From a virus (taxonomy: Duplodnaviria; Heunggongvirae; Uroviricota; Caudoviricetes), in the IMG/VR virus record IMGVR_UViG_2563366903_000018: a stretch of DNA of 12,535 bases; one strand, written 5' to 3'. A model generated the notes under the pieces. It was not told the origin of the DNA. It did no database searches and saw only the letters and a list, made by a program, of their open reading frames with translations. Within the stretch, counting starts at the first letter, position 1. Each line of letters opens with the position of its first letter. A program made the translations under genes and the position numbers. Below are positions 2,765 to 9,915 of the stretch, one piece after another.

Positions 2765-2898
2765 CGGTTGACGATCTGGTGGCAGATATCGCCACCATTT
2801 TTCACTGGCCGCCATCCGTTACTGACGTTATGCCGCTGACCGAAGTGCTGGAATGGCGGTATAAAGCGATTCAGAGAAGCGGGGCCAACGATGAGTGA
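2462..2898 (+). CDS. E+E': gpE+E' frameshift fusion protein (E frame 2462..2725, then -1 frame re-reading 2725 through stop at 2896..2898)
   Basis: Manual translation of the -1 frame from 2725 gives VEEVGACRFTDSLTVDDLVADIATIFHWPPSVTDVMPLTEVLEWRYKAIQRSGANDE, ending at TGA 2896..2898, which overlaps the T start codon at 2891. This is the conserved G/GT-like chaperone frameshift arrangement known for P2 E/E'. Confidence 0.65.
2719..2725 (+). promoter_or_regulatory. Programmed -1 ribosomal frameshift slippery site T_TTT_TTG (E to E')
   Basis: Heptamer TTTTTTG lies in the zero frame of E as T TTT TTG (codons Phe-Leu at 2720..2725). The -1 frame is open from here to a stop at 2896..2898. Confidence 0.7.
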
Positions 2899-3204
2899 TA
2901 ACAACCTGCGTCTGCAGGTCATTCTTAATGCGGTTGACAAGCTCACCCGCCCATTTCGATCTGCGCAGGCCAGTTCAAGAGAACTGGCTGCTGCTGTCAA
3001 AAAATCCCGCGATGCAATAAAGCAGCTTGATCAGGCCGGGAGCAGTCTGGACAGCTTCCGAAAGCTGCAGGCAGAAAATCAGAAATTAGGCGACAGGCTG
3101 AACTATGCCCGCCAGCGTGCAAATTTGCTCAGTCAGGAACTGGGAGCGATGGGGCCGCCTTCGCAACGTCAGGTTGTTGCTCTGGGCCGTCAACGGCTGG
3201 CTGT
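2891..3204 (+). CDS. T: Tail tape measure protein gpT, exon 1 (5' part; predicted 5' splice site after 3204)
   Basis: ORF starts MSDNNLRLQVILNAVDKL directly after E'. The reading frame runs into a stop at 3224..3226 only 7 codons after a GTGTG motif at 3205. The tape measure frame resumes about 1.8 kb downstream in the same frame. Confidence 0.55.
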
Positions 3205-3715
3205 GTGTGTCACGAAGGAGAACTGATAGCGGCAATATGAAAATTGCAGCATAAGTTATCCATGCTCTGAGGTGGGTGGAGGTGGGCCCTCCGGTCAGGG
3301 TTTGCAGGAACACTGACCAAACGACCCGGTGCTGCTTCATTCTAAGGAATGTAGTGGTGAGCGACTCGGGAAAAGGCAGAGATCTACTGTCACGTGGGGT
3401 TCGGGAAGCTGAACGAAAGTAAACTGTCCGATGAAGCATCGAAATCTTAGATGATGTCAAAATGGGGCCGTACAGCCGTCCTCTGATAAGCGCAGAAGAC
3501 ACCTGCTTACTGACTGCGCGGCATCCGGTGTTAAGGCAGCAGGATCCCGGGCCAGACCATCTCAGGGAACGTGAGAACCTGTTTCCGGCACGTATCGGGA
3601 AACAGGGGCGGACCCATTCGTAGTAGTGATGAAAGATCTGTAATGGGTCTGGAGCGAAGGGATGGGGATCACATTCATTGCAAAAGACACAACCCATAAG
3701 GGGATGATGTAACTG

Positions 3716-4948
3716 ATGCAACGAAAATCATTCGAAATACCAAAAGCACTGGTCTGGGCATCATATCTGGATGTGCGTCGCAACAAGGGAGCCCCCGGAT
3801 GCGACGGACAGACTTTGAAAATGTTCGACCAGCAACGTGATGGCAATCTATACAAGATCTGGAACCGGCTATGTTCGGGAACATGGTTTCCGCCACCTGT
3901 GCTGGAAAAACGGATCCCGAAGCCGAATGGCAAGGAGCGCATTCTGGGGATCCCAACAGTATCCGATCGAATTGCTCAGGGAGCGATAAAACTTTTTATG
4001 GAAGAAAAGCTTGACCCGATTTTCCATGCTGATTCTTATGGTTACCGACCAGGCAAATCAGCTCATGACGCTCTGAAACAATGTGCCATCCGGTGCTGGC
4101 GTTATAGCTGGATACTGGAAGTGGACATCAGTGCGTTTTTCGACCATGTGAGACATGATCTGGTGCTCAAAGCACTGGAACACCACGGGATGCCTAAATG
4201 GGTCATCCTGTACTGTCGACGCTGGATGGAAGCACCAATGCAGAGTTGTGAAAATGGAGAATTAATAACCCGAACACGAGGCACTCCGCAGGGCGGGGTC
4301 ATTAGTCCGCTACTTGCTAACTTGTTCCTTCACTATGCATTTGATTTGTGGATGGAAAGAGAATATCGGGGGGTACCGTTTGAGAGGTACGCTGATGATA
4401 TTGTAGTACATTGTTCACGAATGAGTGATGCAACAAGGCTGAAGAACAGGTTATCGGAGCGCTTCTCGGAAGTCGGGCTGGTCCTGAATGCAGGGAAAAC
4501 GAATATCGCCTACATTGACACGTTTAAAAGGAGAAACGTCGCAACGAGTTTCACCTTTCTCGGATATGACTTCAAAGTGCGTACGCTGAAGAATTTCAAA
4601 GGCGAACTGTACCGAAAATGCATGCCGGGTGCGTCAAATGCAGCAATGCGCAAAATAACAGAAACAATCAAGAAGTGGCGTATACATCGCTCAACAGCTG
4701 AGAGTTTGCTGGATTTTGCGAGGCGCTACAATGCGATAGTGAGAGGCTGGATCGAGTACTACGGAAAGTTCTGGTCCAGAAATTTCAACTATCGACTGTG
4801 GAGTGCAATGCAGTCACGTCTGCTCAAGTGGATGCAGTCTAAATACAGACTTTCGAACCGGAGGGCTCAGCGAAAGCTGACGCTGGTAAGGAAGGAGTAT
4901 CCGAAGCTATTTGTCCACTGGTATTTACTACGTGCATCGAATGAGTGA
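3716..4948 (+). CDS. Group II intron-encoded reverse transcriptase/maturase (En-minus type)
   Basis: 410-aa ORF with RT motifs: IPKPNGKERILGIPTVSDR (RT1/2), YGYRPGKSAHDAL, LEVDISAFFDHVRHD (RT3), GTPQGGVISPLLANLFLH (RT4), YADDIVV (RT5 catalytic), FLGYDF (RT7), and maturase domain X RGWIEYYG. No Cys/His-rich HNH endonuclease region after domain X. RBS-like aagggga about 11 nt upstream of the ATG. Confidence 0.9.
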   Translation: MQRKSFEIPKALVWASYLDVRRNKGAPGCDGQTLKMFDQQRDGNLYKIWNRLCSGTWFPPPVLEKRIPKPNGKERILGIPTVSDRIAQGAIKLFMEEKLDPIFHADSYGYRPGKSAHDALKQCAIRCWRYSWILEVDISAFFDHVRHDLVLKALEHHGMPKWVILYCRRWMEAPMQSCENGELITRTRGTPQGGVISPLLANLFLHYAFDLWMEREYRGVPFERYADDIVVHCSRMSDATRLKNRLSERFSEVGLVLNAGKTNIAYIDTFKRRNVATSFTFLGYDFKVRTLKNFKGELYRKCMPGASNAAMRKITETIKKWRIHRSTAESLLDFARRYNAIVRGWIEYYGKFWSRNFNYRLWSAMQSRLLKWMQSKYRLSNRRAQRKLTLVRKEYPKLFVHWYLLRASNE

Positions 4949-4952
4949 TCAA

Positions 4953-5028
4953 GAGCCGTATGACGCGAGAGTGTCACGTACGGTTCCGTGAGCAGCCGGG
5001 GAGTGAAATTCTCTCCGGCTGACTCGAC
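4953..5028 (+). ncRNA. Group II intron ribozyme domains V and VI (catalytic hairpin plus branch-point hairpin)
   Basis: Domain V GAGCCGUAUGACGCGAGAGUGUCACGUACGGUUC (4953..4986): 10-bp lower stem, AGC catalytic triad at 4954..4956, 2-nt CA bulge on the 3' strand, 4-bp upper stem, GAGA (GNRA) tetraloop. Domain VI: 11-bp stem 4993..5003 with 5011..5021, bulged A at 5022, short basal helix, intron ending ...GAC at 5028. Confidence 0.75.
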
Positions 5029-7792
5029 TCAGCGCCTGGAAGAACGCCAGAAAAAGCTGCAGCAGCAGACGGCGCTTGTGCGTGCTGAACTGTACCGGGC
5101 GGGAATTTCTGCGAAAGACGATGCGGGAGCAACTGCCCGTTTAGCCCGTGAAACATCACGTTATAACCAGGAACTTTCGAAACAGGAGGCGCGGCTGAAG
5201 CGACTGGGGGAAGCTCAGCGCAGGATGAATGCAGCGCGTGCCAGTTATGCCCGTTCGCTGGAGGTGCGTGATCGTATTGCAGGTGCCGGAGCCACCACCA
5301 CGGCTGCAGGGCTGGCAATGGGTGCGCCAGTGATGGCGGCAGTAAAAAGCTATACCAGCATGGAAGATGCCATGAAAGGTGTGGCAAAGCAGGTCAATGG
5401 TCTGCGTGACGATAATGGCAACCGCACTGCACGTTTTTATGAAATGCAGGATGCCATCAAGGCTGCCAGCGAACAGTTGCCGATGGAAAACGGTGCGGTG
5501 GACTTCGCTGCACTGGTTGAAGGTGGTGCGCGCATGAACGTCGCAAACCCTGACGACAGCTGGGAAGATCAGAAACGTGACCTGCTGGCCTTCGCCAGTA
5601 CGGCAGCAAAGGCGGCAACAGCCTTTGAGCTGCCAGCGGATGAACTGTCAGAAAGTCTGGGGAAAATCGCCCAGCTCTACAAAATCCCCACCCGCAATAT
5701 TGAACAGCTCGGTGATGCGCTGAACTATCTGGATGATAACGCCATGTCGAAAGGGGCAGACATCATTGATGTGATGCAACGTCTGGGCGGTGTGGCTGAC
5801 CGTCTGGATTATCGTAAAGCGGCGGCGCTGGGTTCCACCTTCCTGACACTGGGCGCTGCGCCAGAGGTTGCAGCCAGTGCAGCAAACGCGATGGTGCGTG
5901 AATTGTCCATTGCCACCATGCAAAGCAAGAGTTTCTTTGAAGGGATGAATCTGCTGAAACTCAATCCTGAAGTGATTGAAAAGCAGATGACGAAGGATGC
6001 GATGGGAACCATCCAGCGCGTGCTGGAGAAGGTAAACGCGCTGCCGCAGGACAAGCGCCTGTCTGCCATGACTATGTTGTTTGGTAAAGAGTTTGGCGAT
6101 GACGCGGCGAAACTGGCAAACAACCTGCCGGAACTGCAGCGTCAGTTAAAACTGACAGCGGGCAATGATGCGCTTGGCTCCATGCAGAAAGAATCCGACA
6201 TTAACAAGGATTCACTTTCTGCGCAGTGGTTGCTGGTCAAAACCGGAGCGCAGAACACCTTCAGCAGCCTGGGCGAAACGCTGCGCCAGCCGCTGATGGA
6301 TATTCTGTACACGGTGAAAAGCGTCACGGGGGCGTTGCGTCGCTGGGTGGAAGCTAACCCGGAACTGACAGGCACACTGATGAAAGCATCGGCTGTTGTG
6401 GCTGCGGTTACCGTCGGCCTCGGCACCTTAGCGGTGGCGCTGGCTGCAGTGCTGGGGCCGCTGGCAGTGATCCGTCTGGGATTCTCTGTGTTGGGTATCA
6501 AAACGTTATCTTCCGTTACGGCAGCAGTAACTCGAACCAGCAGCGCGTTGTCCTGGCTGGCTGGCGCACCACTGGCACTGCTGCGACGCGGGCTTGCTTC
6601 ATCGGGCAACGCCGCAGGTTTACTTACTGCGCCGTTGTCGTCTTTGCGCCGCACGGCATCACTGACGGGAAATGTCCTGAAAACTGTAGCAGGTGCGCCG
6701 GTTGCACTTTTGCGGTCTGGATTATCCGGTTTACGTGCTGTTGCTGTGATGTTTATGAATCCTCTGGCGGTACTGCGCGGTGGACTGGCCGCCGCAGGCA
6801 CGGTGCTGCGAGTACTGGCATCTGGTCCACTGGCGATGCTGCGCGTTGCCCTGTATGCCATATCTGGTCTGTTAGGTGCTCTGCTCAGTCCGATAGGTCT
6901 TGTGGTTACTGCACTGGCGGGCGTGGCGCTGGTTGTCTGGAAATACTGGCAACCCATCACCGCATTTCTCGGTGGCGTGGTGGAAGGATTCAAAGCGGCG
7001 GCAGGTCCCATCAGTGCAGCGTTCGAACCGCTTAAGCCCGTGTTCCAGTGGATTGGCGACAAAGTGCAGGCGCTGTGGGGCTGGTTTACTGATCTGCTGA
7101 CGCCCGTTAAGTCGACCTCTGCCGAACTGCAGAGCGCAGCGGCAATGGGGCGGCGATTCGGGGAGGCACTGGCGGAAGGGCTGAATATGGTCATGCATCC
7201 GCTGGACTCCCTGAAATCCGGAGTTTCCTGGTTGCTGGAGAAGCTCGGCATTGTCAGTAAAGAGGCCGCAAAGGCAAAACTGCCGGAAAGCGTGACGCGT
7301 CAGCAACCTGCGACGGTGAATGCAGACGGTAAAGTGATGATGCCATCGGGTGGTTTTCCATCATGGGGATATGGCTTTGCGGGGATGTATGACAGCGGCG
7401 GGTATATCCCGCGCGGGCAGTTTGGCATCGTCGGTGAAAACGGGCCGGAAATTGTTAACGGCCCGGCAAATGTGACCAGCCGGAGAAATACAGCTGCACT
7501 GGCTGCCGTTGTTGCCGGAATGATGGGCGTTGCTGCCGCGCCAGCAGAGCTTCCACCGTTGCACCCCTTGGCACTTCCCGCGAAAGGTGGAGAAGCAATT
7601 GTGAGTCGCGCAGCCACTGTGCCGCTCGTTCAACGGATTGAGGCACCGACGCAGATCATCATTCAGACGCAGCCAGGACAAAGTGCGCAGGATATTGCGC
7701 GGGAGGTGGCACGCCAACTTGATGAACGTGAACGCAGGCTGAAGGCAAAAGCCAGGAGTAACTACAGCGATCAGGGGGGATACGACGCATGA
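5029..7792 (+). CDS. T: Tail tape measure protein gpT, exon 2 (predicted 3' splice site before 5029; stop at 7790..7792)
   Basis: 934-codon open frame (the ORF track starts it at an internal GTG at 4988, inside the intron). Ala/Gly/Leu-rich with a repeat-bearing central region and a C-terminal region typical of tape measure proteins. Same frame as exon 1; predicted junction codon gt|t gives ...ALGRQRLAV-QRLEERQKKLQQQ.... Stop overlaps the U start (ATGA). Confidence 0.6.
6566..6940 (+). repeat. Tandem degenerate repeats of about 20-22 aa within the tape measure protein (PLAxLRxGL-type units)
   Basis: The translation shows consecutive units: APLALLRRGLASSGNAAGLLT / APLSSLRRTASLTGNVLKTVAG / APVALLRSGLSGLRAVAVMFMN / PLAVLRGGLAAAGTVLRVLASG / PLAMLRVALYAISGLLGALLS / PIGLVVTALAGVALVV. 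Confidence 0.6.
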
Positions 7793-8274
7793 TGATGGTG
7801 CTGGGATTGTACGTGTTTATGCTGCGCACCGTTCCGTATCAGGAACTGCAGTATCAACGCAGCTGGCGACATGCGGCAAACAGTCGGGTAAACCGACGTC
7901 CGTCCACGCAGTTTCTGGGACCGGAAAACGACATGCTGACGCTTTCCGGTGTTCTTATGCCGGAGATAACAGGCGGCAGGCTGTCGTTGCTGGCACTGGA
8001 GCAGATGGCAGAACAGGGGAAAGCATGGCCCCTGATTGAAGGCAGTGGCACGATTTACGGTATGTATGTGATTGAGGGACTGAATCAGACTAAAACGGAG
8101 TTTTTCCGCGATGGTATGCCGCGCCGGATTGAGTTTACCCTGTCGCTCAAACGGGTGGATGAATCCCTGTCCGATATGTTCGGTGATCTCAGTGCGCAGC
8201 TGAATAATTTGCAGGATACGGCAACGTCTGCCTTAAGCGATATCAGTAAAACGGTGGGAGGGCTGCTGTCGTGA
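7789..8274 (+). CDS. U: Tail protein gpU homolog
   Basis: 161-aa ORF whose start overlaps the T stop (ATGA); size and position match P2 gpU (about 159 aa). Confidence 0.85.
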   Translation: MMMVLGLYVFMLRTVPYQELQYQRSWRHAANSRVNRRPSTQFLGPENDMLTLSGVLMPEITGGRLSLLALEQMAEQGKAWPLIEGSGTIYGMYVIEGLNQTKTEFFRDGMPRRIEFTLSLKRVDESLSDMFGDLSAQLNNLQDTATSALSDISKTVGGLLS

Positions 8275-9371
8275 ATTTCAGCTCTGAACTGCTTAACAAA
8301 GGCAACAAAACTCCGGCATTCAGCATCAGTATTGAAGGCAGGGATATCACTACTGTGCTGGACAACCGCCTGATGGGGCTTACGCTGACGGATAACCGGG
8401 GCTTTGAAGCGGACCAGCTTGATCTGGAGCTGGACGACGCCGATGGAAAAATCGTGCTGCCGCGCCGTGGTGCGGTCATTACGCTGGCGCTGGGCTGGAA
8501 GGGGCAGCCGCTTTTCCCGAAAGGGGCATTCACGGTGGACGAGATTGAACACACTGGCGCACCGGACCGCCTGACTATCCGGGCGCGAAGTGCTGATTTT
8601 CGTGAAACACTGAATACCCGCCGTGAAAAGTCGTGGCACAAGACCACCGTTGGGGAAGTGGTGAAGGAAATAGCTGCGCGGCACAAACTGAAGATGGCAT
8701 TGGGTAAAGACCTGTCAGATAAACCCGTGGAACATATAGATCAGACCAATGAGAGTGACGGCAGTTTTCTGATGCGGCTGGCGCGCCAGTACGGTGCTAT
8801 TGCGTCGGTGAAAAATGGCAATCTGTTATTCATCCGACAGGGGCAGGGTAAAAGCGCCAGTGGTAAACCACTACCGGTTATCACTATCACACGTAAGGAC
8901 GGCGACAGTCACCGCTTTACCCTGGCAGATCGCGGAGCTTACACGGGCGTAATTGCCAGCTGGTTGCATACCCGCGAACCCGCGAAGAAAGAAAGCACCG
9001 CGGTGAAGCGTAAGCGCAGGACTAAGAAGCAGAAGAAAGAGCCGGAAACGAAGCAGGGCGATTATCTGGTGGGTACGGATGAAAACGTGCTGGTACTTAA
9101 TCGCACCTATGCTAATCGGAGTAACGCCGAACGGGCAGCGAAAATGCAGTGGGAACGCCTGCAACGCGGCGTTGCGTCATTCTCGCTACAACTGGCGGAA
9201 GGGCGGGCAGATCTCTACACGGAAATGCCAGTGAAAGTCAGTGGCTTTAAACAGCCGATAGATGATGCGGAATGGACCATTACGACTCTGACGCATACCG
9301 TCAGCCCCGATAACGGTTTTACAACCAGTCTGGAGCTTGAAGTGAGGATTGATGATTTCGAAATGGAATGA
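8271..9371 (+). CDS. D: Tail protein gpD homolog (late control gene D product)
   Basis: 366-aa ORF with a GTG start overlapping the U stop (GTGA); position before ogr and length match P2 gpD (about 387 aa). Confidence 0.85.
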   Translation: MNFSSELLNKGNKTPAFSISIEGRDITTVLDNRLMGLTLTDNRGFEADQLDLELDDADGKIVLPRRGAVITLALGWKGQPLFPKGAFTVDEIEHTGAPDRLTIRARSADFRETLNTRREKSWHKTTVGEVVKEIAARHKLKMALGKDLSDKPVEHIDQTNESDGSFLMRLARQYGAIASVKNGNLLFIRQGQGKSASGKPLPVITITRKDGDSHRFTLADRGAYTGVIASWLHTREPAKKESTAVKRKRRTKKQKKEPETKQGDYLVGTDENVLVLNRTYANRSNAERAAKMQWERLQRGVASFSLQLAEGRADLYTEMPVKVSGFKQPIDDAEWTITTLTHTVSPDNGFTTSLELEVRIDDFEME

Positions 9372-9461: not shown

Positions 9462-9680
9462 ATGATGATTTGCCCACTGTGTGGAAGTGCCGCCCATACT
9501 CGCAGCAGTTTTCAGGTATCTTCATTGACCAAAGAGCGTTACAACCAGTGCCAGAACATTAACTGCAGCCATACTTTTGTTACCCATGAAACTTTTGTTC
9601 GTTCGATTGCAACGCCAAAAGAGTCAAATCCGGTTCAGCCACATCCAATGAAATCAGGACAGGTGGCGCTCTCTCTTTGA
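9462..9680 (+). CDS. ogr: Late gene transcriptional activator Ogr (zinc-finger protein)
   Basis: The ORF track starts it at 9429, but the ATG at 9462 has the better RBS and gives a 72-aa protein MMICPLCGSAAHTRSS...YNQCQNINCSHTF with the CxxC...CxxxxC zinc-binding pattern and the length of P2 Ogr. It is the last phage gene before host DNA, as expected for the right end of a P2 prophage. Confidence 0.85.
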   Translation: MMICPLCGSAAHTRSSFQVSSLTKERYNQCQNINCSHTFVTHETFVRSIATPKESNPVQPHPMKSGQVALSL

Positions 9681-9750: not shown

Positions 9751-9793
9751 TTCAGGCAACAAAAAACCCATCAACCTTGAACCGAAATGGCGG
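9751..9793 (-). terminator. Rho-independent terminator for ybjL (minus strand)
   Basis: Perfect 10-bp inverted repeat CCCATCAACC (9757..9766) / GGTTGATGGG (9784..9793) with a 17-nt loop. On the minus strand it is followed by a U-tract (plus-strand AAAAAA at 9751..9756). It lies about 120-165 nt downstream of the ybjL stop. Confidence 0.6.
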
Positions 9794-9915
9794 GGTTGAT
9801 GGGCTCCACAAAATGGGGACATCAAAGAAAAGCAGTGGCACTAATTAAGACTGATGCCCTGCGGAAAAGTTCTGCGGTTGTGCAAAAAAATTTCATTTTC
9901 AGGGCAACTTCAGTT

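Follow-up and report, generated by a model that had tools for sequence, protein, structure and literature searches.

How does a temperate coliphage come to carry a large insert in the gene for its tape measure protein, which is indispensable for tail assembly, and could such a gene still yield its product? The question is raised by gene T in a stretch of 12,535 nucleotides (the window) from the IMG/VR virus record IMGVR_UViG_2563366903_000018, which is identical to part of Escherichia coli KTE186 scaffold KE136876.1 (GCA_000408105.1) and comprises the right arm of a P2-like prophage followed by host genes. T is divided here by a complete group II intron, a copy of the catalogued element E.c.I3, and very probably the arrangement arose when an active E.c.I3 retrotransposed into a look-alike of its homing site in the T gene of the KTE186 prophage.

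T starts at position 2891, is split by the intron and ends at 7792, on the plus strand, as do all the parts of the intron described below. Exon 1 (2891-3204) comprises 104 codons and 2 nt, and its last 8 nt, CTGGCTGT at 3197-3204, equal the 5′ flank of the homing site of the intron in IS66. The open reading frame (ORF) that opens at 2891 (MSDNNLRLQ...) meets GTGTG at 3205 and, after the split codon, runs for six more codons to a TGA at 3224-3226, 20 nt inside the intron. The unspliced T message codes only for this 111-aa product (2891-3226), recorded as the 'hypothetical protein' EOX25434.1. The insert occupies exactly 3205-5028, because the bases at its edges leave no alternative placement, and its length of 1824 nt (3 x 608) is a multiple of three and thus preserves the T frame. 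Exon 2 (5029-7792) starts with TC, as the IS66 site does, and joining 2891-3204 to 5029-7792 in silico gives an open frame of 1025 aa. A shorter join, of 2891-3204 to 5029-5400, agrees in all its 686 nt (100% identity) with the uninterrupted T genes that many complete E. coli genomes, e.g., that of CFT073, contain. At least 80% of this 686-nt spliced query is covered in 779 genomes, and the spliced junction has matches of at least 99% in 355 records, which makes the empty site a common one. The matching uninterrupted genes are annotated as phage tail tape measure protein, and the family PF10145 (PhageMin_Tail) is recorded on the 934-aa product on the exon 2 side. The first-pass annotation of this DNA had described a T frame that stops shortly past GTGTG at 3205 and resumes after an insert of about 1.8 kb, and had anticipated a clean 1824-nt gap against intron-less T genes; the comparison bears out each of these points, and the spliced junction that it had predicted, GGCTGGCTGT joined to TCAGCGCCTG, agrees with the intron-less genes.

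The insert has the anatomy of a group II ribozyme. Its termini lie at the exact edges of the inserted DNA, GUGUG at 3205-3209 and AC at 5027-5028, and fit the 5′ GUGYG and 3′ AY ends of the class. Two Rfam models, matches being counted above the gathering score, recognise it: a domain I segment at 3278-3394 matches RF01999 (group-II-D1D4-2) over the full model, 1-118, with 93.4 bits (cut-off 36; E = 1.9e-18), and the domain V/VI region at 4951-5028 matches RF00029 with 57.1 bits (cut-off 40). Domain V (4953-4986) is a 34-nt hairpin with an AGC catalytic triad, a GAGA tetraloop and a 2-nt bulge, and domain VI (4989-5026) carries a bulged A at 5022, the seventh nucleotide from the 3′ splice site, which is presumed to be the branch point. 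The domain V/VI fold has a z score of -6.4 against shuffled controls, and the whole 5′ part of the intron folds with z = -3.2. In addition, a candidate for exon-binding site 1 (EBS1) was located at 3472-3478 (5′-ACAGCCG-3′), complementary to exon positions -7 to -1 (UGGCUGU), the corresponding intron-binding site 1 (IBS1). The candidate pairing extends over 7 bp with one G.U pair at -7, and ACAGCC occurs only once (3472-3477) in intron positions 1-520. We infer that the candidate sits in a terminal loop, although the minimum free energy fold does not place EBS1 there. The only matching 6-mer, at intron positions 378-383, was rejected as a candidate for EBS2, as it forms part of a perfect hairpin stem and is situated 3′ of EBS1. 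An antisense ORF of 211 aa (3086-3721, minus strand) runs over domains I-IV; it has no Pfam match on record and was treated as spurious.

The intron-encoded protein (IEP; 3716-4948) is encoded in domain IV, has 410 aa and consists of a reverse transcriptase and the maturase domain X, without a DNA-binding/endonuclease extension. Its ORF is limited upstream by a TAA at 3710-3712. The domains RVT_1 (2.4e-41) and GIIM (1.5e-14) are recognised, the YADD motif is present (RYADDIVV), and TIGR04416, the NCBI equivalog model for group II reverse transcriptase/maturases, matches with 394.7 bits (cut-off 300) over positions 2-352 of 353. The nearest solved structures are the GsI-IIC reverse transcriptase and those of other group II introns. 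Both ribozyme and reverse transcriptase look intact as judged by these features, and the textbook domain V hairpin, the 410-aa reverse transcriptase with YADD and domain X and, with them, the initial reading of a group II intron splitting the tape measure gene of a P2-like prophage are upheld. The annotation pipeline PGAP, used in RefSeq, flags the reverse transcriptase of every E.c.I3 copy as a pseudogene ('ltrA incomplete, missing N-terminus'; 3806-4948 in the window, and likewise in L001, L003, L004 and L005), and annotates in addition a frameshifted hypothetical protein antisense to the E.c.I3 ribozyme. A defective IEP, as this flag would have it, was rejected, since TIGR04416 covers nearly the whole model and the RT0/RT1 motifs are present. 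The motifs are those that we take to be RT0/RT1 on inspection of the translation by eye. The flag is probably a systematic annotation error. The exact 410-aa protein is recorded on 732 contigs.

Copies identical to the intron over all 1824 nt (100.0%) are found on the plasmids pSCU-106-1 and E02 p2, and the sole copy in E. coli 536 is 98.0% identical over the same length. A full-length copy is present in 56 complete genomes, and of the best 30 full-length matches in complete genomes most are located in tnpC of IS66-family elements, a family to which IS679 belongs. It has been reported that E.c.I3, the only full-length group II intron listed for strain 536, targets IS679 (Table 2 in Leclercq & Cordaux 2012, PMC3522654), and E.c.I3 is listed under group IIB (PMC8283771). 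The name used here rests on the former paper, which cites Dai & Zimmerly 2002, and on identity to the 536 copy. The E.c.I3 reference shares its length, IEP and domains V and VI with the T-gene copy. By sequence, then, the intron is the catalogued E.c.I3 at a new location and no new kind of system. What differs is the place: the home of E.c.I3 is tnpC of an IS66-family element, while the present copy lies in a phage structural gene whose target shares only positions -8 to +2 with the home site.

How E.c.I3 could enter T is suggested by its occupied sites. With a slash at the insertion point, these read ggaaaaaCTGGCTGT/TCgcgg at the IS66 home site, caacggCTGGCTGT/TCagcg in T, accgaCTGGCTGT/TCgtcg in the type VI secretion gene tssK and ggaaaaaTTGGCTTT/TTgacg on plasmid E02 p2. 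Aligned, the IS66, T and tssK sites all have CTGGCTGT/TC, and the E02 p2 site has TTGGCTTT/TT, thereby departing from the home motif at -8, -2 and +2. The T site differs from the home site at -9 and further upstream, and is the same at +1 and +2. Because the T site shares CTGGCTGT/TC with the IS66 site, and seven of its bases pair with the candidate EBS1, the insertion is best explained as an ectopic retrotransposition of E.c.I3 into T by target mimicry, in sense orientation. A 10-nt motif of this kind is expected by chance some ten times on both strands of a 5-Mb genome (an arithmetic estimate), which makes ectopic insertions plausible; T and tssK hold one such motif each. The tssK copy, a second ectopic E.c.I3, lies antisense to the gene and is seen only by its 3′ junction, in a chimeric metagenome contig (L007, ERZ773208); its site was inferred from this contig and from the uninterrupted locus of E. 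coli ATCC 11775 (between positions 1500 and 1501 of L018). The copy on E02 p2 (2501-4324 of L004) is 100% identical to the intron in T; the DNA around it is unannotated, with a relE/parE toxin gene on one side and a rep gene on the other.

Endonuclease-less introns prefer the lagging-strand template. The T and tssK insertions both lie on the plus strand, at about 0.9 and 0.26 Mb, respectively, of genomes numbered as K-12 (strain MS8345), and this strand we take, by the geometry of E. coli replication, to be the lagging-strand template of the right replichore. In these two cases the orientations would fit the lagging-strand use expected for an intron without endonuclease.

In the proposed course of events, the intron ribonucleoprotein would recognise the T site mainly by the 7-bp EBS1-IBS1 pairing and the U at +1, reverse-splice into the lagging-strand template and be copied without an endonuclease. 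The existence of identical copies at several sites implies that the element moved very recently, and recent movement implies in turn that ribozyme and IEP work, since movement needs both. Upon induction, the late FI-FII-E-T-U-D transcript would have to be spliced, with the help of the IEP maturase, for the 1025-aa T protein to be made; unspliced RNA would yield the 111-aa stub only, and the early in-frame stop would keep ribosomes off the ribozyme. Given the sense orientation, the perfect EBS1-IBS1 pairing and the home-like +1 and +2 positions, splicing that restores T is to be expected. Tail assembly would thus depend on splicing, and the output of T would probably be lowered. The dependence of tail production on splicing had been proposed at first sight of the sequence, and it is a sound inference from it. 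In addition, the extra 1.8 kb of DNA may affect packaging of the phage.

Three other explanations have to be weighed, and the occurrence of the T insertion bears on each of them. A repeated intron could have been misplaced by assembly between the two halves of T, and short-read assemblies do break or mis-join at this point: most short-read contigs end within the intron, and two metagenome contigs, L007 and L009, in which T exon 1 and the intron continue into the 3′ flank of a different copy (tssK in L007, IS66 in L009), look like assembly chimeras through the repeated intron. However, two independent data sets (KTE186, L008, and Logan ERR14060890, L016) each have both T junctions within one contig, the 5′ junction alone recurs in many samples, and the insert is flanked by the target motif of the intron itself and restores T exactly when removed, so that an artefact is hardly credible. 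The exact 30-mer across the 5′ junction, CAACGGCTGGCTGTGTGTGTCACGAAGGAG, is also found in the IMG/VR prophage contig L006 and in the ENA metagenome contig L007, and the 111-aa ORF EOX25434.1, diagnostic of the T insertion, is recorded in its exact form on 68 contigs and in 149 index blocks; most of these contigs are 99.9-100% matches to the KTE186 prophage. Further proteins of its cluster were rejected as additional intron alleles, being only T fragments truncated by the ends of contigs. Two contigs diverge from KTE186, L006 by 30 differences in the 3.4 kb upstream of the intron and 3% in the baseplate genes, and L013 by 13 differences in the same 3.4 kb and 1.4% in the baseplate genes, which places the insertion allele on at least three haplotypes. 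It could be argued from this that the T site is a true secondary homing site, entered repeatedly in different P2-like prophages instead of once with subsequent recombination: the same junction stands on three backbones (KTE186-type, L006 with 97% and L013 with 98.6% identity in the baseplate genes), single-nucleotide polymorphisms of L006 and L013 reach to within 290-580 nt of it, and the empty site is common (the 355 records mentioned above). Yet P2-like prophages are mosaic, and recombination can account for the haplotypes; L006 and L013 have five of these polymorphisms in common; L013 is a metagenome contig, possibly chimeric like L007 and L009; and none of the 56 complete genomes with a full-length intron has an occupied T site. 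Repeated entry is accordingly judged unlikely. A junction scan of the genome-contig collection gave no match.

The third explanation accepts the insertion and regards it as an effective knock-out, in which poor or no splicing within foreign exons would leave a prophage that makes no tails and decays. A number of points speak for it, and against the expectation that T is still expressed and the allele successful. A scan for EBS2 with 5-7-mers over intron positions 101-267 detected no complement to positions -7 to -18 of the IS66 site, nor was an EBS2-IBS2 pairing found for the T site; with exon bases beyond -8 that are unlike those at home, splicing in T may be less efficient. The sense orientation has a 50% probability by chance and the second copy, in tssK, runs antisense and must disrupt its gene, for which reason orientation does not indicate that splicing was selected for. 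Essential genes of bacteria hardly ever contain group II introns, and the ligation of exons can be of low efficiency (PMC3522654); such introns can depress the expression of a host gene even when they splice (PMC6003770). Neither is the allele widespread, the 5′ junction being present in 0 of 5,426 complete E. coli genomes and the intron in 0 of 50,697 phage genome records. Set against these are the perfect 7-bp EBS1-IBS1 match with +1 and +2 equal to the home site, the 100% identity to copies elsewhere, which implies a recently active ribozyme and IEP, the intactness of every visible late gene, and the presence of the allele on at least three tail-module haplotypes (13-30 sites per 3.4 kb), unlike a dead-end lesion of one clone. 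A knock-out is, on this balance, possible but rather doubtful. At the other end of the range stands a fully viable intron-bearing phage, in which E.c.I3 would splice sufficiently, the genome would be packaged with its additional 1.8 kb and the T allele would serve as donor among P2-like phages; this we put forward tentatively, as an outcome that may well hold without being probable. If it does, this would be the first worked case of a coliphage that depends on an intron of the retroelement type for an essential structural gene, and a tractable E. coli system for asking what makes group II introns so uncommon in phages. The reading preferred here, recent retrotransposition of E.c.I3 into a look-alike site, covers the origin of the insertion.

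Group II introns are nearly always confined to other mobile DNA and were thought to be absent from phages until a survey of 2025. Earlier work on the Bacillus cereus group reported prophages whose tape measure genes contain group I introns, found no group II intron in any prophage and remarked that group II introns had not been found in phages (Tourasse & Kolsto 2008, PMC2504315). In those group I cases, as in the present one, a self-splicing intron divides a temperate phage's tape measure gene, and a stop codon follows closely on the 5′ splice site; they differ in the class of ribozyme and in the use of a homing endonuclease, as opposed to retrotransposition here. The later survey detected group II introns in about 0.06-0.07% of phage genomes and suggested retroposition from host to prophage; among its 20 curated cases, two of which were proposed to derive from the host by retroposition, there is neither a P2-like phage nor a tape measure gene (Merk, Jones & Eddy 2025, PMC12350094). 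Like T, these cases feature a group II intron in a conserved phage gene, Rfam D1-D4 and D5/D6 matches and an intron-less homologue, whereas the sole E. coli phage case among them is intergenic and matches D1D4-6. Compared with all of them, the T insertion has an explicit donor family and an explicit target mimicry. A tblastn search of the phage records found group-II-like reverse transcriptases in only 34, none of them above 45% identity to the IEP.

A further parallel is RmInt1 of Sinorhizobium meliloti, an endonuclease-less IIB intron whose home is an insertion sequence. E.c.I3 resembles it in its IEP without endonuclease, its home in an insertion sequence and the orientation of the T and tssK insertions, which is as expected for the lagging-strand template; it belongs to a different lineage, and its EBS2 was not located in the scan of intron positions 101-267. 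No published description of E.c.I3 in a P2-like T gene and no experimental study of E.c.I3 mobility were found in the literature. The T insertion is a new insertion site of a known intron within an already described category, and it reveals no new mechanism. Its value lies in its being an unusually clear case, with a known donor family, an explicit target motif (CTGGCTGT/TC) and intron-less alleles 100% identical to the spliced product, in a well-studied host, E. coli, a well-studied phage type, P2, and a gene without which no tails are made. It could be a natural test of how costly a group II intron is to an essential phage gene, and it shows E.c.I3 currently retrotransposing into sites outside insertion sequences (T, tssK and the plasmid site).

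The surroundings of T are those of a P2-like late region. Upstream lie the genes for a DNA invertase (1-567), sheath protein FI (710-1882), tube protein FII (1892-2407) and E (2462-2764), and downstream U (7789-8274), D (8271-9371) and ogr, which ends at 9680. The synteny FI-FII-E-E'-T-U-D-ogr is present. E. coli CFT073 carries at this locus a prophage of like type that lacks the intron; its genes follow one another in identical order, and the late genes visible in the window have the lengths of their CFT073 counterparts. The small RNA gene rybB (9758-9836, minus strand; full-length RybB match, 105 bits) begins 78 nt past the end of ogr, which means that the right end of the prophage adjoins rybB/ybjL, the locus of the CFT073 prophage; ybjL, ybjM and grxA lie beyond rybB. 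The intron-bearing contig L006 reaches further upstream and contains ORFs of the sizes expected for P2 head genes. Judged by its late and head genes, the prophage does not look decayed.

A GpE-family ORF of 39 aa (PF06528; 2779-2898) extends into the first codons of T and is presumably the downstream frame of the programmed E/E+E' frameshift of P2; the intron, which is inserted further downstream, leaves it unaffected. At the other side of the late genes, the invertase, of the Hin/Gin type, adjoins tail-fibre genes (1-567 and upstream of the window; L008 4671-7029; L010-L014). The KTE186 scaffold has a gap of 2359 N at the fibre segment. Across assemblies, this segment is seen in both orientations, with ORFs of either 465 and 145 aa or 514 and 200 aa reading forward, which points to an active invertible host-range switch.

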